From Giardia intestinalis (Eukaryota): a stretch of DNA of 64,000 bases. Each line of letters opens with the position of its first letter. Position 1 is the first letter of the stretch. Position numbers and translations under genes: made by a program. The DNA lies in assembly GCA_000002435.2 (NCBI GenBank), contig CM018793.1; one strand, 5' to 3'. Shown here piece after piece: positions 26,018 through 64,000 of the stretch. The notes under the pieces were generated by a model, which was not told the origin of the DNA, made no database searches, and was given only the letters and a program-made list of their open reading frames with translations.

Positions 26018-27610
26018 ATGACTAATGGACCTAGCAGGGCCGCAATGTTGCTACTAGTTCTCTGCTTTTTGATGAGCGCCCTCGCCGCGCAACGCACTAA
26101 ACAACCCACATCCGACTGCGGAGTCGCAAACTGCGCCCAGTGCAACGCGGACGGCAGGACGTGTGATCAGTGCAGCGAGGGGTACAACCTCAACCAGGAG
26201 AAGACCCAGTGCACCAAGGCGTGCGCGGTCGCAAACTGCGCCCAGTGCAACGCGGACGGCAGGACGTGTGATCAGTGCAGCGAGGGGTACAACCTCAACC
26301 AGGAGAAGACCCAGTGCACCAAGGCGTGCGCGGTCGCAAACTGCGCCCAGTGCAACGCGGACGGCAGGACGTGTGATCAGTGCAGCGAGGGGTACAACCT
26401 CAACCAGGAGAAGACCCAGTGCACCAAGGCGTGCGCGGTCGCAAACTGCGCCCAGTGCAACGCGGACGGCAGGACGTGTGATCAGTGCAGCGAGGGGTAC
26501 AACCTCAACCAGGAGAAGACCCAGTGCACCAAGGCGTGCGCGGTCGCAAACTGCGCCCAGTGCAACGCGGACGGCAGGACGTGTGATCAGTGCAGCGAGG
26601 GGTACAACCTCAACCAGGAGAAGACCCAGTGCACCAAGAACCCAGAAGCGCGATGCAATACTCCCAACTGTAAGACCTGTGACAGCCCCAAAACAGACAG
26701 TGAAATCTGCACTGAATGTAATAATGGCAACTACCTCACCCCGACAAAGCAGTGCACGCAGAGCTGCGGAACAATAGGAAGCTACTACAACGGAGACAAA
26801 GTGTGCGAGCCCTGTGATCCTAGCTGTGCTGCGTGCATCACAAAGGGACCAGCGAAGTGCACGCTGTGTCCTCCCGGGAAGAGGCTCCAGTACACAGATG
26901 AAGGAGCCACTCAGAACGGCGGATCCTGCGTAGATGAGTGCAAGCCTGAAGGAGGAGCTAGCGGATGCGAGACCTGCGGAGCCACCATCGGAGGGACAAA
27001 GTATTGCTCGAAGTGCAGCACATCCACGGAGGTCCCCGTCAACGGGGTCTGTACAGCAGACAATGCCCGCGCAGCTGCGTGCAAGGTGAAAGATGGCAAG
27101 GGAGGGTGCACTACGTGTGAGAGTGGATACTTCCTCCAAGACGGCGGTTGCTACAAACTCGGTAGACAGCCCGGTGAGCAGATATGCACAGCAGCCAGTA
27201 GCGCTGGTAAGTGCGAGACGTGCGCCAATAGTCTTCAGCCCAATAATGGAGCATGCCCCTCGTGTCACTCGACCTGTAAGACATGTCGTGATGCTAATTC
27301 TGCAAATGCTTGTACAACGTGTGCAGCTGGGTACTATATGGTCGGATCAGCAGCTGGACCATGCACTTCGTGTGACAGCAACAGTGGAAGTGTCAAGGGA
27401 GTTGCTGGCTGCATGAGCTGCGCTCCTCCATCGTCTAGTACTGGCTCCGTCCTTTGCTACCTCATGAACGGTGACAGTGCCGGCGGAAGCACGAACAAGA
27501 GCGGCCTTAGCACAGGCGCCATCGCAGGCATTTCTGTCGCAGTCATCGTTGTCGTGGGGGGTCTTGTCGGCTTCCTCTGCTGGTGGTTCCTCTGCAGGGG
27601 CAAGGCGTAG
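26018..27610 (+). CDS. variant-specific surface protein (VSP) with five tandem 35 aa repeats
   Basis: There is a signal peptide, pervasive CxxC motifs, and a C-terminal TM 'GLSTGAIAGISVAVIVVVGGLVGFLCWWF' followed by the invariant 'CRGKA' and a stop. AGTAAAC lies 14 nt after the stop. An alternative start at the second ATG (26045) gives the typical 'MLLL' VSP N-terminus. Confidence 0.9.
   Translation: MTNGPSRAAMLLLVLCFLMSALAAQRTKQPTSDCGVANCAQCNADGRTCDQCSEGYNLNQEKTQCTKACAVANCAQCNADGRTCDQCSEGYNLNQEKTQCTKACAVANCAQCNADGRTCDQCSEGYNLNQEKTQCTKACAVANCAQCNADGRTCDQCSEGYNLNQEKTQCTKACAVANCAQCNADGRTCDQCSEGYNLNQEKTQCTKNPEARCNTPNCKTCDSPKTDSEICTECNNGNYLTPTKQCTQSCGTIGSYYNGDKVCEPCDPSCAACITKGPAKCTLCPPGKRLQYTDEGATQNGGSCVDECKPEGGASGCETCGATIGGTKYCSKCSTSTEVPVNGVCTADNARAAACKVKDGKGGCTTCESGYFLQDGGCYKLGRQPGEQICTAASSAGKCETCANSLQPNNGACPSCHSTCKTCRDANSANACTTCAAGYYMVGSAAGPCTSCDSNSGSVKGVAGCMSCAPPSSSTGSVLCYLMNGDSAGGSTNKSGLSTGAIAGISVAVIVVVGGLVGFLCWWFLCRGKA
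26116..26640 (+). repeat. 5 x 105 bp perfect tandem repeat inside VSP coding region
   Basis: The unit encodes 'CAVANCAQCNADGRTCDQCSEGYNLNQEKTQCTKA'. Copies 2-5 are nucleotide-identical in the visible sequence, for example 'gtgtgatcag' recurs every 105 nt. Confidence 0.9.
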
Positions 27611-27624
27611 ATGTGTACTTAGGT

Positions 27625-27631
27625 AGTAAAC
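27625..27631 (+). promoter_or_regulatory. Giardia polyadenylation signal AGTAAAC (VSP)
   Basis: 'aggtagtaaacgcg' lies directly 3' of the VSP stop codon TAG (27608-27610). Confidence 0.7.
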
Positions 27632-28664
27632 GCGTCATTGTGTGTGGCTTATATAAATGTGCTGCTGGGGCTATCTGAGCGTGGCCCAGAGGTCGTGCGG
27701 GTGAGCCCGCTCCTTCCTGGCCAGTCCAGGAACGATGGCTGGTTTTGGATGATATAATAGGGATCTCCCTTCACTTGTATACCAGGAGTCTTTTGCGTCC
27801 CTCAGTTGTTCCGCAGAGGTGTGCTCAGTTCGAGTGTGCGCGTCGCTCAGCCCAGGATTCAACTTACTTGTCCATCTGCATTGTCCACCATTGGTGCCAC
27901 TTCTTGGTCTACCGCTCTGATGCCGGAGGGTCCCAGTAGTTGATGACCCTGGACTGACGCCTCGACAGACCGAAGCATCAGCCCAAGTGTGCTGTGCAGT
28001 GCAGATGGACCAGCCCACACGTCACTGAGCCAGACGCACTGCACAGGGTGAGCGTCGACACGGTCTCGTACTGGATGACGGACCACCTGCAAGAGCGCAC
28101 TGCGATCCATGAGCAGAGGACCATACTTCTCCCCCGATACCAACGCATAGGAGCTGTCCGCCGGCATCCACGAACGCGTACTATGACTCCAAGATAGAGG
28201 CGCACGGGGAGCATACCCTCCGATCATACTCGGAACCGATGATCGCTTCATGGGGAGACAAAGAGGTGCCCCGAGGAACGGGATAGGCACCCGAGGTCGT
28301 GGCGTGCGATCTTCGTCACGGAGCACCAGGGCCACGTGGAGGCCAGGCTGCTGTGACCGACGGTAGCCCCGAGACAACAGGTGCTCACTAGATATCAGAC
28401 GATGGTTGACCCCGACGGGCCAGAGGATGGGAGGAATCTAGAGGCACCGCGAGGAGCGGCAGGTCCCGGGGGAGACAGGATATAGGAGTTCTCCCGCCGG
28501 GATCGAGGGCATCCGACTCTCGGATTTCTGATCTCAGCTATTGTATGAGCGAGAGGCTTGCCCAGGGCGGCAATGGCTCGCATGAAAAGACCACTCCGGT
28601 AGCAGGCGACAACCCCGCCTCATTAAAATTTACTCTTCCCTAACCTCGTCTCTCTAGATATCTG

Positions 28665-54588: not shown

Positions 54589-55182
54589 TACTTTTAATTT
54601 TACAGTACAGTTTACTCTCCGTTTCACTGGGTAAATCTCCCATGCGAGCCAGCGCCGCCCTGGGCAGGTCTCTTGCTTACTCACTAACCGAAATCCAAAT
54701 CCAGACTTCGCAAGTCAAACGTCGTCCACTTCAGCGGGAGAAGAAGCCCAAATGGGGAAGTCGGTGGTCCAACGCCTAGCCCTCTGCGTCCCCAGTAGAC
54801 AACAAACCCGCGGCTGCTCCCACGAGTGAGCCGCTGAGGAAGGCCTGCGGGGACTCGAAGAAAAGAGTCTAGAGAGCATCCAATAGAATGAGCAGGAGGG
54901 CCAGGAGACAGGAACAAGAGAGCTCTAGCATCTTCCTCTAGCGAACCTCCCTGTCATGGAGAAGGGTGTATGGTGGCTGAGTGTGGGGGTTGTAAACCTA
55001 GAGCAATCGCCGGGTCGATGGCTTCAGCATGGCTTTCAGCAAGATGTAGCAGGGAATCCGAACCAGCTGAGCATTGGACCAGGTCCTGGATAGGAGCTAA
55101 GGGCTCCTGTGCACGGCTGGGCTGCTCTCTAGATGGGACAGGGCACGGTGAGCTGGACGGGTGTGATACTATAAGGTATCTA

Positions 55183-55202
55183 TAGTTGTATCGATACAAC
55201 TA
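55183..55202. repeat. 20 bp perfect palindrome tagttgtatcgatacaacta
   Basis: Seen directly in the sequence. The 18 bp core 'agttgtatcgatacaact' is centred on a ClaI-like 'atcgat' site. Confidence 0.8.
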
Positions 55203-58200
55203 GTAGGCCCACACTGGACTCTGAGAAGTACACTGCTAGACAGGCTGGAGAAGCCTGAGGGGCGATAGCACCATCTTGTTATCGCTATGCAGTGCTCTGT
55301 GGGCATGCATTCAAGACATCATCCCCTGGTAGCCGGGGAGGGGACAGAGTCAGGCGGTAGTGAGCATGCCCATCAGAATGCCTCTAGGTACTGACCAGCC
55401 ACTCCCTAGAAGCGCAGATGTCTCGGCTAGGTTGCATCACATCCAGAGCAAAAGAGGAAGCTGTACTGTCCTATTTGTTTCTCAGAACAATGTGCGAATA
55501 GAAGGCGGCCCAGCGACTGATACTCTGCACCGTCCTCTTCATCCACAGCCTGAGCAGCCAGATGCCAGGCTCAATATGAAGACGGAGGCTGCGAAGAGTA
55601 AACTCACCACGGGGCCGATTGTCTGACACCAAAAAATCCGAAAGGACGACAGTAGCTGCTGTCTCCTTGAAGAGTGCATCACACACAGTATCGACCTTGG
55701 TCTCCTAGACGAACACTCTAGAACATTCTACACTAGCCCTGACTTCTGAGGCATTAAACCCTATAACTAGCACAGAGTGAGGCAACAGCATGCAGACGGT
55801 GCGTTATCTTCATAGATGTGTACTACAGCTTCCGACTGCATATGGATGTACCGAGATGGGCAGTTTGACCGGCTTACATTGGCGACTTGTCCGTCACCGT
55901 GTTTGCTGCGATGAGAAGCTGCGTCTGCCCGGCAGACTGAGCATAGATTACAGCAGCTTCTCTGCTGATGCATGTATGGCCATGCGCCGCCCTAGTAGGT
56001 GGCGTAAATACCATAATGCCTAACCTGTCTGTTGTTAGCGGAAAATAGCAGTTAGTCGTGTTAGAGATGCCTCTAAGTAAGCCTCTAGTCTTTGTGCCTA
56101 CTCCTCTACCAATTATAGTGACGACCGTATATTCAGAAAGACTACGGAACTCTCCACCGTCTCTCAAGGAGACTAACGGCTCATGCATGGGCTAGCGACG
56201 GAGGCCCATGAACTACCTACTACGAGCCTAGCTTACTGAGCAGTCTGGATCACAGTGCACTTGATAAGCATCTATGCACTCATTTGGATGCTCACTACTA
56301 ATACTGACAAGACTACAAGGAGGTTTGCTTTTGGTCACACTCCCCTCATAATGCTTAGCCCTTGGCACCACATTTCAACGAAGGAAGATGTTAGGTAGGT
56401 ACGCAAAAGGCTATTTGTGCACGGTGGTTCCTGGAGAGCAAGTTTGCACAAAGACTGTAAAGGCGACTAGCAGATCAGTGAGGTAAGCCTGACGTTATAG
56501 AGACAAGCTGTAGATCCGGATTGCAATGGGGACGCCTGTGGTGTCTCTCTGGCCTTCGAGTGTAGAAAAATCGCGAGGTCTGCAGACAGGTGAAGCTAGT
56601 TTTTGATTTATGCGCTTATAGCAGTGTAATATTTATTGGGACCTGTTTCGTCTGAGGCCGAAGACGTTTATCTTTTCTCCGTATACAAGCAAGGATCTAC
56701 TGTAGAGATATACTGTGCAGGCCAGTACCAATCGACGTGGTTGCTATTAGCAGGTGTCTCACTTGCACCTTCTCATAACGGGTAGCCATCAGCAGCGTCC
56801 TCGGCCCACGTGACATTCTAGATGCATCTCTGCCTTTGACCAAAGATTGACACACGCGTTGTGTAGTTTAGATTGCTCATCAGCCAGAGTGGCGTGGCTA
56901 CCCCTTATCCTCTACTTGTCTATCTCGTACAACCATTGCTGATGGCCTTTCCAGATTAGCATGCAAATGCTCTTATCGGTCCCACAAAGGCATACGTCAT
57001 ACAAATAATCACTACAGTCTAGGGTCCTGTCTACCAAAGAAAAGGCCAACCAGTTTACCACGTAGGCATTCATTGTGCATCTCATATAGTCTGGCAAGTC
57101 TTGTGCTCCCCAACATTCCCTCGCAAGCCCTCAGCTAAAGCCCGTATGCATATCGTTATTGACAAGCGCCTTAGCTTCATCTGGCCACTTAGGGCGTTAG
57201 ACCCTTTGCCTTGTACAATGAGTATACTCGGCGTGGGAGGTATACAATCAGCATCGGCCTTTTCTGCTCGTTGTCCGTATGATACTGTTGTTGCTTCTTG
57301 ATTCAACCAGCAACCTAGTTAATGGCTCAAGAGTAGGTGATAGCCCGCCAACGGGCAGTCAATAGTGGCCATAACGCATACCTTCACCAAGGCACAGCCT
57401 CCCTGAGCAGAGCACAAAAGTGGACCCTGCCATTCTGCGGCCCTACTATTCTCTTGAATAACAGGATCAGAGCAGCTCATGGTTAGTATTAGCTGTCTTC
57501 GGGTCTCCACCTGTCCTTATTGTCTGAGGTATGCTTGACTCCGTAGATTCGAAAGATGCTGTACTGTACTCGTACCTGCAAGCCTCAGCCAAGCAAGGCT
57601 ACCATCTTGAAGGCTTGGCAGTGATGAGCCACACAGTCGGCGGGATCTGCAGAGAGCATTCATCCCAATGAGCCTTTTACTTGTCGTATACAGGTTGTGG
57701 CTGTGACCTCATAGGCGCAGGACTTTCTGGAATAACCGGTCAACTACAGAGTCTGTCCACTCATGTAAAGCCACCTGATAGAGGGCGATATCAATCTCGT
57801 CACTCGTCTACAACATACACCAGTCGAATCTCACAGATGAACAAGGGCCACCCAGCCCGCAGCACTAGACATTAACAGATATCCTTCACGACAAAGGGGG
57901 TGAGCGACTAGTAGACCACAGCAGTCGCCTGCCCATTGAAGATCTTCCAGTCACTGACCTAGGTCAGCTTCCTACAAGATCTTGAGAGCTTTATTAGAGG
58001 TGCATGCTTATAGAATCCCCAACTCAAGGTGCATGCTGTCGGACCCTGCTATTTTTCACATCAGCTCGTAGACATCGGTTCTTTTGATCTCTAGTGGGGT
58101 CACGGGGGATCGCAAGATATGGTTCCCTCAGTAAGGCTTTATCTGACTCCTGTAGCTATATGACAGGAGGATACCGGTCTTCTATGGATTATTTAACGCA

Positions 58201-59357
58201 TGCTAAGGTGCACCAGTACAAGTCCTACAGTGTGGCATGATTCGTGAGTCAAAAGGTAGGATGCTTGGGCTGATTGGCGTGTCTCCTCGGGACCAAATAC
58301 AGCTAGGACCAAAGGTCATGAACGAATGCTATTCGATTCCCTTATCAGCAGATGGGGGTCAACTGCTCTAGTATCCACAAGAGGCTATAGAGGGTACTGG
58401 ACCAGGCATCCGGCCAATTGCTGGCAAATCAACACAACCTCCTTGGATCTCCATTCTTTCCTCACAGGCATCTACATGTAGGAAGCTCTGAGGACCTAGA
58501 GCCCTACACTAACAGGCTCAAGGTATTGCACTCCTAGGTGCTTCCATTAGTGGTGGTAGTGATAGCACCAGGATGATCCAGAAGGGGGATAGAAATCCTG
58601 CCCCGTTAGCTCAAGAAATGGCACAGTTTGAGCAGGGTTTCCTCCTTGTTTAAATTTGGGAGTACTAGCCTACGCCCTCTGACCATCTGACGCCTTATCA
58701 TGCGATGGGGAATCTTAATAGTATCCACTACAAAAAGCCAGAAATAGCACCATGCACACCCAACAAACCAGAGCGTCTCATAGGCTAATCTACACTGATT
58801 CGCACTTCCACGGACCCTAGCGACCACTGTAACCGTCTCTCGGGATCTTGCAAGGGACTGTCCTTGAGCGCGATTCCTCCATGACAACCAGAAGTCGCAG
58901 ACATAGTCCAAAGGGATGAGAATACTATAGAGGCGGAGAAGAGATCATCTGCGCACGGGGGTCCGCAGGGGCCCGACCCGCACAGGGAAGGCGTAAGAGG
59001 CCAATTCCCCAGGAATGCAGAGACATTAAGAGAGGAACCAGCAGTGGGCCCATAACACAGGGAGGTCACCCGGGCCGCCCCCTGATTGGCCACAGGGTAG
59101 AGGAGCAGCATGCGCGCGGGACAGCATTGCTACTTATTTTTGAATTTTCTGTTTCCCTGCATGTTGTGCAGGGGTCCGCGGTGGGTGCTAGACTATAGTT
59201 AGTAGATGCTTTCGGCATTAACAACTATCTCTTGTACAACAATATTATCAAAAAGGGATTTCTTTAAGCTGGCAGCATAGCAATAACCGAATGGAGCTTT
59301 TTAGCTTTGGGTATCTTTGCTAGTAGGATTCTTGATAGTGGATTAAGAAGAATCTCA

Positions 59358-60617
59358 ATGTTGCTGATAGCTTTCTATCTTGGGCTGAGCGCCCTTGCGG
59401 CACAATGTAAGCAAGTACAAAATTGTGCAGCAGGTAAGTGTGAGATGGTTGGCGGCACTGAAATTTGTACAGAATGCGCGACAAATGGAAACGTTCCTAT
59501 CAATGGGGAGTGTACACCAAAAGGTAATGCGGCTGATAAATGCAAGAAAGTTAACGGTAATGAGCTTGTTGACGATAAGACATGTGGAAAATGTGAGAAC
59601 ACATACTTCATGTACAAGGGTGGATGCTATCAACTTGGCAGTGATGTCGCACTCCTCATCTGCAACGATCAAGCTGCTTCACCTGGAGGGCGTAATGCTG
59701 TTGCTGGCGTTTGCACAGAATGTAATGCTACTGGGGGATTCTTCAAAAGCCCAGAGGCGGCCGACACGACAGATTCCTGCATATCGTGCAGTGATACAAC
59801 TGGAGTGCAGGTTAATGGCGGTAACACGTATAAAGGTATCGAGAATTGTGTAGTATGTGCAGCTCCAGAAAGAGGAACAGGTAACGAAAATAAGATTGCT
59901 GCATGTGAGTCATGTCTTGAAGGATTCTTCGTTGCATCTAACAAGGCAGTATGCACACGTTGTACTGATAATGATAATTGCGCTAAGTGTGATGCAGGCG
60001 AAAACAAGTGCACAAAATGTAAGGCAACAGCCAGCAAACCATATCTAAAAAAGGGCGAAACCGAGGACTCTAATACATGTGTTAATAGTAACGAATGTAC
60101 TACTGATAAAACTTACTTCACTGATGATACTGACGACCCTACTCATGGAAAGATGTGCAAGAAATGCTCAGAAGGGATAGCAGACTGTAAGAAATGCGCT
60201 CCATCATCACCTTCTGCTTTAGCTACAGTATCCGCAATTGTGTGCACAGAATGTACAACACAGACCAACAAACCCAATGTTGCCGGAACAGGGTGCTTCA
60301 CATGCTCCGTAGACGGATGTAGTAACTGTAGCGAGAATGACGTATGTGAAAAGTGTGGACCTAACAAGAAGGTGAGCCCCGGGAGGAAGTCATGCGTGGA
60401 TAGCTGTCCCGAGAACTCCATTGACGATAACTCTGTCTGTACATGCAGCAGTGGGTACAGCCCTGACAGCAGTGGGGCCTCCTGTGTGTCCACTGGCAGT
60501 AATAGGAGCGGGCTCTCCACGGGGGCCATAGCGGGGATCTCCGTCGCAGTCATCGTCGTCGTCGGGGGTCTCATAGGGTTCCTCTGCTGGTGGTTCGTGT
60601 GTAGGGGGAAGGCGTGA
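59358..60617 (+). CDS. variant-specific surface protein (VSP), left copy of inverted pair
   Basis: Signal peptide 'MLLIAFYLGLSALAA'. There are many CxxC motifs. The C-terminal TM 'GLSTGAIAGISVAVIVVVGGLIGFLCWWF' is followed by 'CRGKA' and a stop. AGTAAAC lies 8 nt after the stop. The track start at 59307 is a TTG, so the first ATG at 59358 is used. Confidence 0.9.
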   Translation: MLLIAFYLGLSALAAQCKQVQNCAAGKCEMVGGTEICTECATNGNVPINGECTPKGNAADKCKKVNGNELVDDKTCGKCENTYFMYKGGCYQLGSDVALLICNDQAASPGGRNAVAGVCTECNATGGFFKSPEAADTTDSCISCSDTTGVQVNGGNTYKGIENCVVCAAPERGTGNENKIAACESCLEGFFVASNKAVCTRCTDNDNCAKCDAGENKCTKCKATASKPYLKKGETEDSNTCVNSNECTTDKTYFTDDTDDPTHGKMCKKCSEGIADCKKCAPSSPSALATVSAIVCTECTTQTNKPNVAGTGCFTCSVDGCSNCSENDVCEKCGPNKKVSPGRKSCVDSCPENSIDDNSVCTCSSGYSPDSSGASCVSTGSNRSGLSTGAIAGISVAVIVVVGGLIGFLCWWFVCRGKA

Positions 60618-61148
60618 CTTAGGTAGTAAACACGTCACTGTATATGGCTTATTACGCTATTCTGCCGGGGCTATCTGAGGATCGCCCAGAGGTCGTGCGA
60701 GTGATCCTCGCTCAAGCTCTGACCAGTCTAAGGACGAGGGTTGGTCATGAATAACATGACGGAGAGCCCTCTCCAGTGACACATCCAGAATCTGGGCATT
60801 CCTCGCCGCTCCATGAGGATATGCTCTGTCTGGATGTCCATGCCGATCTATCTTGGATTCAGGCCTTCTCGCAGGCTCTCTACTCTACCCGTGGCGCCTC
60901 TCCATGGTCTTCCTTCGTGGTGGGTGAAGCTCCGGTCGCTGTTTTTTAGATGCTCCTGTCTGTCAGGGGCTGCCACCGGGCTCTCCGCTGGCTGGGCCCT
61001 CGGTGTCCGTCCGGCTGTGGCCCGGGCAGCGCTCTACGGTCGCGGTCACTTGGGTCTCAGTGGGTTCGGATGGTGGGGAGGCGAGGGGAGTTAGGGCGGT
61101 GAGGCCGGAGGGGCTGGAGGGGCTGGAGGGGCTGAGGTTGGTGGTGGT
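59872..61148. repeat. left arm of large perfect inverted repeat (VSP 3' two-thirds + 530 bp 3' flank); probably extends further left
   Basis: Coordinates x and 123872-x are reverse complements. ORF pairs 60813-61094(+)/62778-63059(-) and 60390-60638(-)/63234-63482(+) translate identically. The arms diverge at about 61148/62724. Confidence 0.85.
60625..60631 (+). promoter_or_regulatory. Giardia polyadenylation signal AGTAAAC (VSP left copy)
   Basis: 'cttaggtagtaaacacg' lies immediately 3' of the TGA stop (60615-60617). Confidence 0.7.
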
Positions 61149-63240
61149 TGTATGCGCCTCTGGTCCCTCGATAGACTGGGGTGATCGCAGCTGTGGTGAC
61201 TGGGGGCTGTCCATCTGTGACTCACCCCTCTGTGTGCTCGTGGTCTGTGAGTGCCTCCACCCAGACAACCCTCAGGAGCCGTGCACACCAGGACAGAGAG
61301 GGTGACAGAGGAGAGTCAAGCAGCCCTGCCACGAGGGTGCACAGCAGCCAGCCTGGGCTGCAGGGCCCGCTCGAGCGATGGTAGTGACAGACGACTCCCT
61401 CTGACAGCAGCCCTGGTGACTGGCACTGGTCTGCTTTCGAGGCTGAGTGACAGTGTGCACAGATGGACATGAGTGCAGGAGGACCATCCACACACGGACA
61501 GACTGTGCCCCCATACGAGAGCGCCAGGCAACCACCCGAGCACCCGAGAGGCAGCAACAGACACGGGCACTAGAGATCCCCAGCCAGACAGCTGCCATGC
61601 TCATCCATAGGGGCATCAGAGGACCAGGGGAGTCACCCTCACAATCAGGGTATGATAGGAAGCCAGAGGACTCAAACACTACAGCATAGCAGATCCAAGG
61701 GAGGCACACTCCAGCAGGCGAGCAGTGGCAGAGCCCTGATAGCTGCCAGCCCCCCATGACACCCAGGCAGGCACCAGGCTCACCGAAGGCTCTGCTGGCC
61801 TCCACCGATGATCCGAGGGGGCAGCAACCAGAGGAGTGGGGAGGCCTTCGGACACCACAAGAGGCCCGGCTGTCCAGCAGGCGATGGAGCACAGGTGGCC
61901 TCTGAGCACCATACAGGCACAGAGCCGACCATCAGAGTGATGCCCGATCAGAGACGACCACGAGCACCCTCCACCGCACTCTGAGGGGCTGTCGATCATC
62001 CCACTGCCTCTCATAGCAGACCTCCTTGAGAGCAGTGCAGTGGGTCCCAGCTCATGCACGCCTCCCCTGGCATAGGACACCCCGGCTCTCCCCGAGGGGT
62101 CATCAGAGCCACGAGAGGTGTCAAGGTCCTGGTAGATCACACCGGGAACTCCCCGAGGGCACAGCAACTGAGATATGAGTGACCCTCAGTGTGCTCCTCT
62201 CTGATGGTAGAGCATCTTGAGACCAAGGGGGTCACCTCTGCCTACGGACGACACACAGCACTCCACAACAAGGACCCACTAGGAGCAGCACAGCTGACCA
62301 CGGGGACAGTGCAGTCACCAGTGCCCCACCGTGCCAGTTTTCTGGGCCATCATACTATAGGCATGAGAGAACCCCATCCCATCCACAGGGTCATCCATGC
62401 CCCTGCTGGCCCGAGGTGAACTCCCCGTCGAGGCGCTGGACAGGGCATGCCAGGGGCTCAGCAGACCCACAGAGAGAATCAGCGAGTAGCAGGAGGGGCT
62501 GCGATGGCCTGCCTCAGCCCTCACGTACCAGCCAGACAGAGAGACAGTACTGCCTGAGGCATGCAGGGGCCAAGGGAGGCGATCAGTCAGGGGACACGAC
62601 ACGATCGTCGGTGCCTGTGTCTCGGGAGTGCAACGAAGGCTGGAGATCAGACACAGCCACCTTAGCAAACAGAGTGGGGACAACCCACCACCCCAATAGC
62701 CCACCGAACCCAGAGGCACATACAACACCACCAACCTCAGCCCCTCCAGCCCCTCCAGCCCCTCCGGCCTCACCGCCCTAACTCCCCTCGCCTCCCCACC
62801 ATCCGAACCCACTGAGACCCAAGTGACCGCGACCGTAGAGCGCTGCCCGGGCCACAGCCGGACGGACACCGAGGGCCCAGCCAGCGGAGAGCCCGGTGGC
62901 AGCCCCTGACAGACAGGAGCATCTAAAAAACAGCGACCGGAGCTTCACCCACCACGAAGGAAGACCATGGAGAGGCGCCACGGGTAGAGTAGAGAGCCTG
63001 CGAGAAGGCCTGAATCCAAGATAGATCGGCATGGACATCCAGACAGAGCATATCCTCATGGAGCGGCGAGGAATGCCCAGATTCTGGATGTGTCACTGGA
63101 GAGGGCTCTCCGTCATGTTATTCATGACCAACCCTCGTCCTTAGACTGGTCAGAGCTTGAGCGAGGATCACTCGCACGACCTCTGGGCGATCCTCAGATA
63201 GCCCCGGCAGAATAGCGTAATAAGCCATATACAGTGACGT

Positions 63241-63247
63241 GTTTACT
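63241..63247 (-). promoter_or_regulatory. Giardia polyadenylation signal AGTAAAC (VSP right copy)
   Basis: 'gtttact' on the plus strand equals AGTAAAC on the minus strand, directly 3' of the minus-strand VSP stop. Confidence 0.7.
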
Positions 63248-63254
63248 ACCTAAG

Positions 63255-64000
63255 TCACGCCTTCCCCCTACACACGAACCACCAGCAGAGGAACCCTATG
63301 AGACCCCCGACGACGACGATGACTGCGACGGAGATCCCCGCTATGGCCCCCGTGGAGAGCCCGCTCCTATTACTGCCAGTGGACACACAGGAGGCCCCAC
63401 TGCTGTCAGGGCTGTACCCACTGCTGCATGTACAGACAGAGTTATCGTCAATGGAGTTCTCGGGACAGCTATCCACGCATGACTTCCTCCCGGGGCTCAC
63501 CTTCTTGTTAGGTCCACACTTTTCACATACGTCATTCTCGCTACAGTTACTACATCCGTCTACGGAGCATGTGAAGCACCCTGTTCCGGCAACATTGGGT
63601 TTGTTGGTCTGTGTTGTACATTCTGTGCACACAATTGCGGATACTGTAGCTAAAGCAGAAGGTGATGATGGAGCGCATTTCTTACAGTCTGCTATCCCTT
63701 CTGAGCATTTCTTGCACATCTTTCCATGAGTAGGGTCGTCAGTATCATCAGTGAAGTAAGTTTTATCAGTAGTACATTCGTTACTATTAACACATGTATT
63801 AGAGTCCTCGGTTTCGCCCTTTTTTAGATATGGTTTGCTGGCTGTTGCCTTACATTTTGTGCACTTGTTTTCGCCTGCATCACACTTAGCGCAATTATCA
63901 TTATCAGTACAACGTGTGCATACTGCCTTGTTAGATGCAACGAAGAATCCTTCAAGACATGACTCACATGCAGCAATCTTATTTTCGTTACCTGTTCCTC
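63255..64000 (-). CDS. variant-specific surface protein (VSP), right inverted copy, 5' part beyond window end
   Basis: The minus-strand ORF encodes the identical C-terminal 154 aa '...GLSTGAIAGISVAVIVVVGGLIGFLCWWFVCRGKA'. The reverse complement of the last 40 nt of the window exactly matches 59872-59911 of the left copy. Confidence 0.85.
   Translation of the reverse strand, partial: GTGNENKIAACESCLEGFFVASNKAVCTRCTDNDNCAKCDAGENKCTKCKATASKPYLKKGETEDSNTCVNSNECTTDKTYFTDDTDDPTHGKMCKKCSEGIADCKKCAPSSPSALATVSAIVCTECTTQTNKPNVAGTGCFTCSVDGCSNCSENDVCEKCGPNKKVSPGRKSCVDSCPENSIDDNSVCTCSSGYSPDSSGASCVSTGSNRSGLSTGAIAGISVAVIVVVGGLIGFLCWWFVCRGKA

Follow-up and report, generated by a model that had tools for sequence, protein, structure and literature searches.

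What kind of DNA lies between two identical, convergent VSP genes of Giardia intestinalis, and does its marked strand asymmetry serve a function of its own or reflect the history of the genes beside it? The question is raised by a window of 64,000 nt, the whole stretch of DNA that was analysed, which was placed on Giardia intestinalis WB chromosome 5 and in which a sequence-only reading had singled out 61149-62723 as a T-depleted, unique spacer between inverted VSP copies. By sequence and gene identifiers, the host of this spacer corresponds to the already published identical tail-to-tail VSP pair GL50803_00d14331/GL50803_0014331, both identifiers carrying one protein sequence in the supplementary tables of Rodriguez-Walker et al. 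2022 (bioRxiv 10.1101/2022.03.07.483299). In the window the two convergent VSP ORFs are identical, the right copy being seen in part, and their stop-to-stop distance in the ORF list is 2,637 nt. Table S4 of the same preprint gives the pair as '-> <-' with a spacing of 2,637 nt and no intervening gene, which makes the current WB annotation gene-free between the two 14331 copies, and it describes their intergenic region as 'very similar' to that of other pairs; the preprint also tags the spacer region 'VSP like'. In Table 5 of Adam et al. 2010 (PMC2996952), row 107 ('vsp107') lists divergence at 529 nt and 2638 nt between the ORFs. That study places the end of identity between the 3' flanks of such pairs at 139-729 nt past the stop codon (at ~486-559 nt in 7 of the 9 tail-to-tail pairs) and calls identical inverted VSP pairs 'an interesting, but cryptic observation'. 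The flagged 1.5 kb is the middle of an already described 2.6-kb spacer and no new kind of element. The parts of the locus are as follows.

59358-60617, plus strand: left VSP gene GL50803_00d14331, 419 aa, CRGKA tail (ORF; identical sequence and gene IDs in the preprint supplement; PF03302 homologues)
60616-60635, plus strand: extended VSP poly(A) signal GACTTAGGTAGTAAACACGT, with AGTAAAC at 60625 (motif scan; preprint table S6 lists the same for the left VSP)
60618-61146, plus strand: 3' flank of the left arm, 529 nt, perfect inverted copy of 62726-63254 (arm comparison, composition; Adam et al. 2010, Table 5)
61052-61134, plus strand: G-cluster element at the inner end of the left arm (G-content and repeat scan)
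61147-61262, unstranded: decayed inner extension of the inverted repeat (alignment, skew, shuffle scores)
61164-62709, minus strand: non-coding, unique core of 1,546 nt, distal 3' flank of the right VSP (composition; seven homologues; periodicity; indels; Pfam/Rfam)
62710-63254, minus strand: 3' flank of the right arm with the imperfect junction (arm comparison, motif scan, G scan)
62741-62820, minus strand: mirror G-cluster (G scan)
63241-63247, minus strand: right poly(A) signal (motif scan)
63255-64000, minus strand: 3' part of the right VSP gene GL50803_0014331, the window end truncating the rest (complementarity to the left copy; ORF; preprint supplement)

The inverted arms (59872-61146 and 62726-64000, the right one ending with the window) are 100% complementary over at least 1,275 nt. 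Past the stop codons the flanks diverge abruptly, being perfect to 529 nt and imperfect on to 546 nt, and the arm homology fades at 61163/62710, past a 1-nt indel and a mismatch. Further inwards the repeat is degenerate: 61147-61163 pairs imperfectly with 62710-62726 and 61222-61262 weakly with 62680-62638, the strictly asymmetric loop being ~61263-62637. This degenerate inner match also occurs in two homologous copies from other assemblies, L005 (p ~0.03) and L010 (a score that none of 300 shuffles attained). Each VSP stop codon is followed, 8 nt on, by a strong consensus poly(A) signal; on the plus strand of the intergenic region the AGTAAAC at 60625 is the sole AGTRAAY, and a motif scan of both strands of the 2.6-kb spacer found no poly(A) signals of this form beyond these. 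The left arm flank is A-poor on the sense strand of the left VSP (A.147), and its G-cluster element, which contains (GGCTGGAGG)x3.6 at 61103-61134, is matched by nothing but its mirror, in the whole 64 kb, in reaching 40% G or more per 150 nt. G-clusters of variable repeat number lie at the equivalent position in the copies L002, L004 and L005.

The T depletion is real. Over 61149-62723 the base content is A.243, C.318, G.297 and T.142, with 8 T in 61441-61500, and in the core T is.141, GC.616 and AT skew +0.266, A outnumbering T by 376:218 (binomial p 9e-11). In sliding windows the core has the lowest T and the highest GC of all 1.5-kb windows in the 64 kb, its AT skew (z ~2.5) being barely above the largest value elsewhere (0.26). 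On the sense (minus) strand of the right VSP the core has an A content of.141, and the flank of the right copy (62726-63254) has an AT skew of the same sign (+0.261), so the continuity proposed between spacer and right flank holds, as does the proposal of about 2.1 kb of A-poor sense flank of which the left copy keeps 530 bp (measured, 2,091-2,108 nt and 529 nt). Other parts of the first description did not survive measurement. The skew had been said to flip exactly at the arm boundary, 61148, whereas it turns at 61256, ~108 nt inside the 'unique' part, where the degenerate inverted repeat ends; the sign changes because the first ~0.53-0.64 kb of the flank is copied in inverted orientation. 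The supposed richness in CAG and ACAG dissolves against dinucleotide expectation (CAG 80 vs 84 expected, ACAG 25 vs 21, CAGACAG 2 vs 1.4), the recurrent CAG-type motifs being a by-product of composition. Nor is there a purine/pyrimidine bias, the purine fraction of the core being 0.54, its homopurine and homopyrimidine runs at most 9 nt long and its GC skew -0.03; the asymmetry of the core is confined to A versus T.

Seven homologous copies, a mixture of paralogues and orthologues, were recovered from Giardia assemblies in ENA, and their cores are 86-94% identical pairwise. Among the sequences compared, similarity to the spacer was found in these seven copies, at 81-93%, and in the WB paralogous ORF GL50803_118549. 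L002 aligns with the window from 63366 to 61501 (1,927 nt, 82%), its VSP upstream being just 52% protein-identical, and L005 to L010 show 81-87% overall identity by blastn. The skew is kept: L006, L007 and L010 have an A content of.127-.146 on the VSP-sense strand, L002 has an AT skew of -0.2 to -0.5, and throughout the 2.1-kb flank family the sense strand of every recovered copy is rich in GC and poor in A. All seven copies carry the skew of the window copy. Other loci have the same 1.8-2.1 kb after a single VSP, which bears out the view of the spacer as an oriented, unique extension of the right copy's flank. The inverted-repeat junction is likewise common to all seven copies; in L005, L008, L009 and L010 the homology runs across the left junction at an identical position, and these four, like WB, hold both the flank and its inverted copy. 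L005 is a solo locus, its module having a VSP on one side and a convergent Mec-17 acetyltransferase gene on the other, the second VSP being absent, and at least three distinct copies (L005, L006 and L010) occur in one sample, ERZ27317378. JGI metagenome contigs scanned with an invariant 19-mer yielded two chance matches with no wider similarity. The core is 88-93% identical to the window copy vs 68-87% for the VSP-proximal flank, a difference that could reflect either a sequence-specific function, which would count against a purely passive core, or concerted evolution. The family alignment further marks one change as peculiar to the WB copy.

61507-61508, unstranded: WB-copy-specific deletion of 45-47 nt between CACAGTC direct repeats (family alignment, columns 1828-1874)

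Three minus-strand ORFs of the ORF list fall wholly or partly in the core.

61272-61892, minus strand: spurious 206-aa ORF (frameshifts in every homologue)
61679-62167, minus strand: spurious 162-aa ORF (frameshifts in every homologue)
62315-62869, minus strand: spurious 184-aa ORF (frameshifts in every homologue)

The first two had already been judged unlikely to be coding, and the alignments agree: each ORF carries 2-15 frameshifting indels per copy in all homologues, 22 of the 26 indels between the core and L002 are not multiples of 3, and the predicted 'proteins' of other copies jump between reading frames of the window. The period-3 power of the core is 0.40, where shuffles average 0.66 and genes give 2.7-17, with no period-3 signal in the whole core or in 300-nt windows. 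It had also been suggested that the rarity of stop codons on the A-depleted minus strand creates these frames; the frames do exist, but the T-poor plus strand is just as short of stop codons, and at 219, 168 and 136 codons the observed frames are only mildly long (p 0.04, 0.01 and 0.02 in dinucleotide shuffles, which give for each strand a mean longest open frame of ~146 codons). An ancestral long ORF was looked for in the family consensus and is absent, its open frames reaching at most 257 codons. A six-frame Pfam search of the core gave nothing convincing, the one weak match (DUF4232, E 0.094) being under the family cut-off; a tblastn comparison of the window's whole protein set with the spacer gave a best E of 0.04 and left the window VSPs unmatched; and two protein searches with concatenated spacer ORFs gave weak negatives, with no match among the 8,000 candidates at which each was capped and, in the second, even the L002 ORF calls missed. 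An exhaustive HMMER search recovered eight homologous ORF calls. The core showed no trace of a structured RNA or miRNA source by Rfam, folding, covariation or small-RNA matching: Rfam returned 0 matches at E up to 1, sliding-window folding revealed no excess stability (mean z +0.06 to +0.23), a single local stem region at 61914-62140 (z ~-2.1) lacks covariation support, covariation scoring gave a term of +0.72, 1 of 67 pairs being compensatory, and none of 44 published Giardia Argonaute-bound small RNAs matches the window. Because the ORFs are frameshifted and codon periodicity, Pfam or Rfam matches and an RNA-structure signal are lacking, the core is non-coding, and the long ORFs, judged by these signals, are not genes; by periodicity, indels and domain searches the 2,637 nt between the VSP ORFs form a gene-free interval within the range of 2-4 kb. 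The core encodes no protein, has no detectable structured RNA and is not made of repeated motifs.

Taken together, the interval is probably the non-coding, single-orientation core of a conserved ~2.6-kb module that separates identical tail-to-tail VSP genes. The VSP-proximal 3' flank in this module comprises a poly(A) signal, ~430 nt and then a G-rich cluster and is present twice, in inverted orientation; between the two lies the core of ~1.4-1.55 kb, which simply extends the 3' flank of one of the VSPs. The skew changes sign for a geometric reason, at the end of the inverted copy, which comprises the first 0.53-0.64 kb of that flank. The inverted duplication of the flank appears to be old because its junction is common to copies that differ by 6-14%, and an old duplication with 100% identical arms points to continuing arm-to-arm gene conversion or to repeated re-copying primed from the flank repeat. 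Against an arm identity of 77-100% in the solo locus L005, the arms here are perfect over their whole measured length while core copies diverge, which supports the earlier proposal that recombination acts on the structure. The core may be passive in this process, serving as a heterologous loop that limits conversion tracts and would hold the long inverted repeat far enough apart for stable replication. As for the skew, it is better seen as an inherited trait of the flank family than as a product of the present mutation pattern. Singleton rates per consensus base in 8 copies are much alike on the two strands (.126 for C>T and.111 for G>A;.110 for T>C and.111 for A>G), with no sign of the unequal complementary substitution rates of transcription-associated mutational asymmetry, and the net flux erodes both the GC content and the A deficit (GC->AT 139 vs AT->GC 71; A gained 68, lost 26). 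Provisionally, the composition is away from mutational equilibrium, since some of the singletons could be assembly errors, or variants that selection or biased conversion would go on to remove.

An alternative that seems unlikely, while agreeing with several features of the locus, is that read-through past the poly(A) site yields a perfect hairpin RNA of >1.2 kb, with the core as its loop, from which Dicer would generate small RNAs that silence the 14331 VSP. The perfection of the inverted arms suits this proposal, as does the spacer's freedom from further AGTRAAY on either strand over 2.6 kb, although at such a composition that scarcity is expected by chance (an estimated <1 site per strand) and the signal past each stop is a strong one. 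In the literature antisense VSP transcripts are abundant, sense reads exceeding antisense reads in just 12-20% of VSPs, and transcript overlap is common at tail-to-tail gene pairs; the identical inverted VSP pairs with unrelated spacers in G. muris would fit selection for the arrangement itself. On the other hand, the tested Argonaute-bound small RNAs are all without a place in the window, and VSP1267, which comes from such a pair, can be the expressed VSP, so that such a pair is not constitutively silenced.

It is improbable that the module is a present or past mobile or duplicative foldback-like element, whose inverted flanks would prime inverted copying of the adjoining VSP and so give identical pairs. 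The multi-copy family with its divergence and its several copies in ERZ27317378 is what such an element would leave, and terminal inverted repeats of ~0.4-0.64 kb, as in a foldback-type transposon, are conserved in WB, L005, L008, L009 and L010; the narrow range of divergence points in the published pairs and the combination of different VSPs with similar spacers point the same way. The module nevertheless has no transposase or other ORF, one of its ends always runs into a VSP 3' end like an ordinary flank, and the solo locus L005, which would count in favour, is equally readable as a pair minus one VSP. The L005 repeat ends were inspected for target-site duplications, but in local alignment the homology stops ~90 nt from the stop-equivalent position, leaving boundaries too fuzzy to define any. 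A broader proposal, also improbable, makes the module a cis-acting 'twinning cassette' that primes the copying and homogenisation of VSPs, the twins' read-through hairpin RNA feeding an RNAi-type control of VSPs and the core being selected as hairpin loop or read-through tract. Inverted flank repeats with G-rich, break-prone inner ends would prime inverted copying repeatedly, and the core, A-poor and devoid of poly(A) signals, would join the twins into a read-through hairpin RNA.

The sequence-only reading had itself proposed that the skewed tract can adopt R-loop or triplex structures and in this way act as a transcription terminator or recombination hotspot, and for the core this is very improbable. 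Its high GC content (61.6%), its strand asymmetry and its position between convergent genes would suit the idea, and on each VSP sense strand an adjoining G-rich tract qualifies as R-loop-forming, defined by an initiation zone of G clusters and, after it, an elongation zone of 100 nt or more in which G makes up 40% or more of the non-template strand. In the 64 kb, however, only these arm ends qualify (60951-61250 on the plus strand and 62651-62900 on the minus strand), mostly outside the flagged interval, and the core does not: G makes up.298 of its plus strand and.318 of its minus strand, so never more than 32%, with GC skew near zero and an interior nearly without G-clusters. The arm ends pass the looser G-cluster criteria only, the one strict G-quadruplex motif (loops of at most 7 nt) in the whole window being at 62684-62711 on the minus strand. 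Triplex (H-DNA) formation calls for a long homopurine/homopyrimidine mirror repeat, which a core with a longest homopurine run of 9 nt, no purine bias and an asymmetry of A versus T only cannot supply. That the core is a decayed plus-strand protein gene, or that its minus-strand ORFs are live genes, is scarcely credible: the plus strand does resemble in composition (A>T, GC-rich) the sense strand of the VSP at 26018-27610 (GC.583, AT skew +.21), the 'VSP like' label and the ORF GL50803_118549 called by an older annotation in a paralogous spacer lean that way, and the minus-strand frames slightly exceed shuffle lengths, but periodicity, protein similarity and a long consensus ORF are all missing, as is a gene here in the current WB annotation, no copy conserves a reading frame, and the indel pattern, as read from the alignments, already refutes the live-gene version.

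The preferred reading, a passive core in a conserved module, adds an anatomy to the published pair. The spacer consists of one oriented flank and a copy of its first 0.5-0.6 kb that was inverted long ago, is a member of a multi-copy family of conserved non-coding DNA found also beside a single VSP, and has at its arm ends the sole G-rich tracts of the window, several spurious ORFs being dismissed. The examined passages of Adam et al. 2010 (PMC2996952) and Rodriguez-Walker et al. 2022 do not describe the skew, the flank continuity of the unique part or the G-rich arm ends, nor the decayed inner repeat, the solo module or the argument for arm-to-arm conversion. The wider question is how Giardia keeps ~20 identical pairs identical, WB having 13 tail-to-tail pairs, and whether they have a part in antigen switching, for which 61263-62637 offers a uniquely mappable target for RNA-seq, small-RNA and R-loop mapping.

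One related system is the vsp1267 pair, with which VSP duplication was first described (cited in Adam et al. 2010, PMC2996952), whose identical tail-to-tail ORFs lie ~3 kb apart (2,648 nt in table S4) and whose spacer is placed by that table in the same similarity group (group 5) as that of the 14331 pair (Rodriguez-Walker et al. 2022); it involves a different VSP on a different chromosome, and the likeness is drawn from the table entry rather than from sequence. Giardia muris has seven identical VSP pairs, 5 of the 7 tail to tail (Xu et al. 2020, PMC7641422). The inverted-twin arrangement thus recurs across the genus, whereas the G. muris spacers hold NEK, ankyrin or zinc-finger genes or pseudogenes in place of a non-coding skewed core. 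In other systems, G-rich pause or R-loop terminator elements occur downstream of poly(A) sites, and the sense-strand G-cluster that follows each VSP poly(A) signal at a distance of ~430-530 nt resembles them, although the Giardia clusters sit in the arms and not in the core and are known here from sequence alone. Human Y-chromosome palindromes have near-perfect gene-bearing arms around a unique spacer, their identity being kept by arm-to-arm gene conversion. They span tens to thousands of kilobases, where the 14331 pair spans kilobases and conversion in Giardia is deduced from the copies, and the two share gene-bearing arms, a unique spacer and an arm identity far above what the age of the structure would lead one to expect.

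The open reading frame at 59358-60617 encodes a 419-aa product that ends in ...CRGKA, has the Giardia VSP poly(A) signal just downstream, and is identical in sequence to GL50803_0014331/GL50803_00d14331 (Giardia intestinalis WB, chromosome 5). The inverted arms of this gene and its convergent twin, 59872-61146 and 62726-64000, show 100% complementarity, the right arm being cut by the window end, and their homology fades at 61163/62710, past an indel of 1 nt and a single mismatch. The distance between the two ORFs as measured here (60618-63254) is exactly 2,637 nt, as listed in table S4 of Rodriguez-Walker et al. (bioRxiv 10.1101/2022.03.07.483299), where the 14331 pair appears as '-> <-' with 0 genes between and its intergenic region is called 'very similar' to that of several other duplicated pairs. 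Row 107 of Table 5 in Adam et al. 2010 (PMC2996952) gives the same pair 2,638 nt between ORFs and 3' divergence at 529 nt, and identical VSP pairs are, in the words of those authors, a cryptic observation. Since both papers list the pair, the spacer structure is already in the literature; the compositional observation is real, and the structure it described was known.

The core of this spacer (61164-62709; A.243, C.318, G.298, T.141, GC.616) has the lowest T and the highest GC in the window, with an AT skew of +0.266 and a GC skew of -0.03. Its AT skew lies just above the largest value elsewhere in the window (0.26) and is extreme, not far outside the window distribution. The T-poor strand skew noticed in the sequence-only reading was thus borne out by base composition, as was its continuity with the right copy's 3' flank (+0.261 there; -0.261 in the left flank). 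The flip had been placed exactly at 61148; the cumulative A-T minimum was found instead at 61256, ~100 nt inside the 'unique' part. CAG, ACAG and CAGACAG, put forward as recurring motifs, occur as often as dinucleotide content predicts.

Homologues were drawn from ENA assemblies containing Giardia. A VSP homologue (P0005, 52% identical) pointed to contig L002, in which the 1.8 kb 3' of the VSP stop codon aligns to window 63366->61501 at 82%, and an exhaustive HMMER search with a 219-codon minus-strand frame of the spacer returned eight ORF calls, including the 'hypothetical protein' GL50803_118549 of the older WB annotation; the contigs bearing matched ORFs (L005-L010) are 81-87% identical to the spacer. 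In an eight-sequence alignment core identity between copies is 86-94%, and the core is better conserved relative to the window copy than the VSP-proximal flank (88-93% versus 68-87%). Every copy recovered is rich in GC and, on the VSP-sense strand, poor in A, and a single sample yielded at least three distinct ones (L005, L006, L010), which identifies a multi-copy family. GL50803_118549 (P0125, XP_001703840.1) is an ORF of a paralogous copy of the core and almost certainly not a real gene. The WB copy lacks, at 61507/61508, a 45-47 nt segment held by all seven homologous copies, and this deletion sits between CACAGTC direct repeats; L006:1-1841 carries a ~460-nt tandem duplication of the equivalent of window 62686-62227, which might also be a misassembly.

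The spacer core is conserved, and it neither codes for protein nor specifies a structured RNA. It is separated from L002 by 26 indels, of which 22 have a length not divisible by three; in every other copy each of the three long WB ORFs is interrupted 2-15 times by a frameshifting indel, ORFs called on the other copies jump between reading frames of the window, and period-3 power is 0.40 in the core, 0.66 in shuffles and 2.7-17 in window genes. No ORF in the family consensus exceeds 257 codons, six-frame Pfam comparison of the core gave only one weak match below cut-off (DUF4232, E 0.094), and neither tblastn of the window's proteins against the spacer nor comparison with Rfam gave a significant match. 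The long minus-strand ORFs ascribed earlier to stop rarity are indeed non-coding, but stops are equally scarce on the plus strand, because T-poverty removes them as A-poverty does; minus-strand open frames exceed those of dinucleotide shuffles by a small margin only. Folding of the core has a mean z of ~0 on both strands, and none of 44 published Argonaute-bound small RNAs maps to the window. An imperfect local hairpin at 61999-62043, CCCACTGCCTCTCATAG...TTGAGAGCAGTGCAGTGGG, occupies the one stretch where the core's folding z falls to ~-2; it is conserved, with no compensatory changes or covariation in support.

Substitutions were deduced from singletons across the eight copies. Complementary changes occur at similar per-base rates on the two strands (C>T.126 vs G>A.111; T>C.110 vs A>G.111), and the net flux moves the sequence away from its current make-up (GC->AT 139 vs AT->GC 71; A gained 68 and lost 26, T gained 76 and lost 50), so that the present mutation pattern does not create the skew, which is inherited or held by something other than present mutation. 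Biased gene conversion could keep GC high but could not hold the A/T asymmetry, and no coding relic is detectable. In L002 and L005 the core directly continues the 3' flank of one VSP, and the opposite end of the module repeats the initial 0.53 kb of that flank in inverted orientation. A degenerate inverted match (61222-61262 vs 62680-62638), present in WB, L005 and L010, lengthens this inverted copy to ~0.64 kb and ends at the flip, so the flip follows from inverting skewed sequence and marks no functional boundary. Taken as a whole, the description of a non-coding conserved spacer core, its skew a legacy of the VSP 3' flank family and its flip geometric, is probably correct; any function past spacer or loop is putative.

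Among the mechanisms proposed earlier, triplex formation in the core is excluded by sequence, as the purine/pyrimidine bias invoked for it amounts to 54% purine with no homopurine or homopyrimidine run above 9 nt. R-loops are not predicted in the core when judged by G clusters together with a G content of 40% or more; across the 64 kb this combination occurs only at the arms' inner ends, 60951-61250 (+) and 62651-62900 (-), which hold the sole tracts with at least 40% G per 150 nt in the window:

61052-61134, plus strand, G-cluster tract at the inner end of the left arm
62741-62820, minus strand, G-cluster tract at the inner end of the right arm

These tracts, on the sense strand of each VSP and 430-530 nt past its poly(A) signal, contain a 9-nt tandem repeat (GGCTGGAGG)x3.6; other copies also hold G clusters at the arm-end position, with variable repeat number. 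Should polymerase pausing or breakage occur at the locus, these tracts would be its site. A hairpin RNA produced by read-through is possible in principle, given the perfect arms and the abundant antisense VSP RNA in the literature; the spacer also lacks a second poly(A) signal, although at this composition none would be expected by chance anyway.

The left junction is also crossed at the WB position in L005, L008, L009 and L010, and because it is common to copies differing by 6-14%, the inverted duplication of the flank is older than their divergence. One locus carries the module alone:

L005:425-3697, solo module of VSP 3' end, flank, core and diverged inverted flank

Its flank copies are only 77-100% complementary, and the window arms pair without a mismatch for 1,275 nt or more. 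The simplest reading of the copy comparison is that in pairs continuing arm-to-arm gene conversion, or repeated re-copying, would keep the arms identical. In L005 the place of a second VSP is taken by a convergent gene for a Mec-17 acetyltransferase (PF05301, E 3e-30), and this solo form may be a precursor of pairs or a pair minus one copy; a further Cys-rich/VSP-like gene lies at L005 4266-6071. P0005 (L002:752-2629) is a mosaic VSP, 84% identical overall to P0008, a WB VSP on the 2.76-Mb chromosome, and nearly identical to it in the C-terminal half, with a middle block (…DDTDDPTHGKMCKKCSEGIADCKKCAP…) matching the window's VSP 14331, which suggests recombination between VSPs that have this flank family in common.

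The 5' flank is also part of a conserved cassette, since L002 1-559 is 75% identical to 58617-59174. The 4.7 kb upstream of the left VSP (54685-59357) has no long ORF, and 58700-59150 has a GC of.53-.57 and an AT skew of +0.27. A second, GC-rich VSP at 26018-27914 (530 aa, internal tandem repeats of ~35 aa) matches the 3' flank family at 72-82% identity through the initial ~300 nt alone, without the G-rich element and without the core. Identical inverted VSP pairs have also been described in G. muris (PMC7641422); their inverted-twin layout is like that of WB, whereas their spacers are unrelated and carry genes and the WB core is non-coding. This recurrence suggests that the arrangement matters more than this core, whether for the organism or for the mechanism of duplication.
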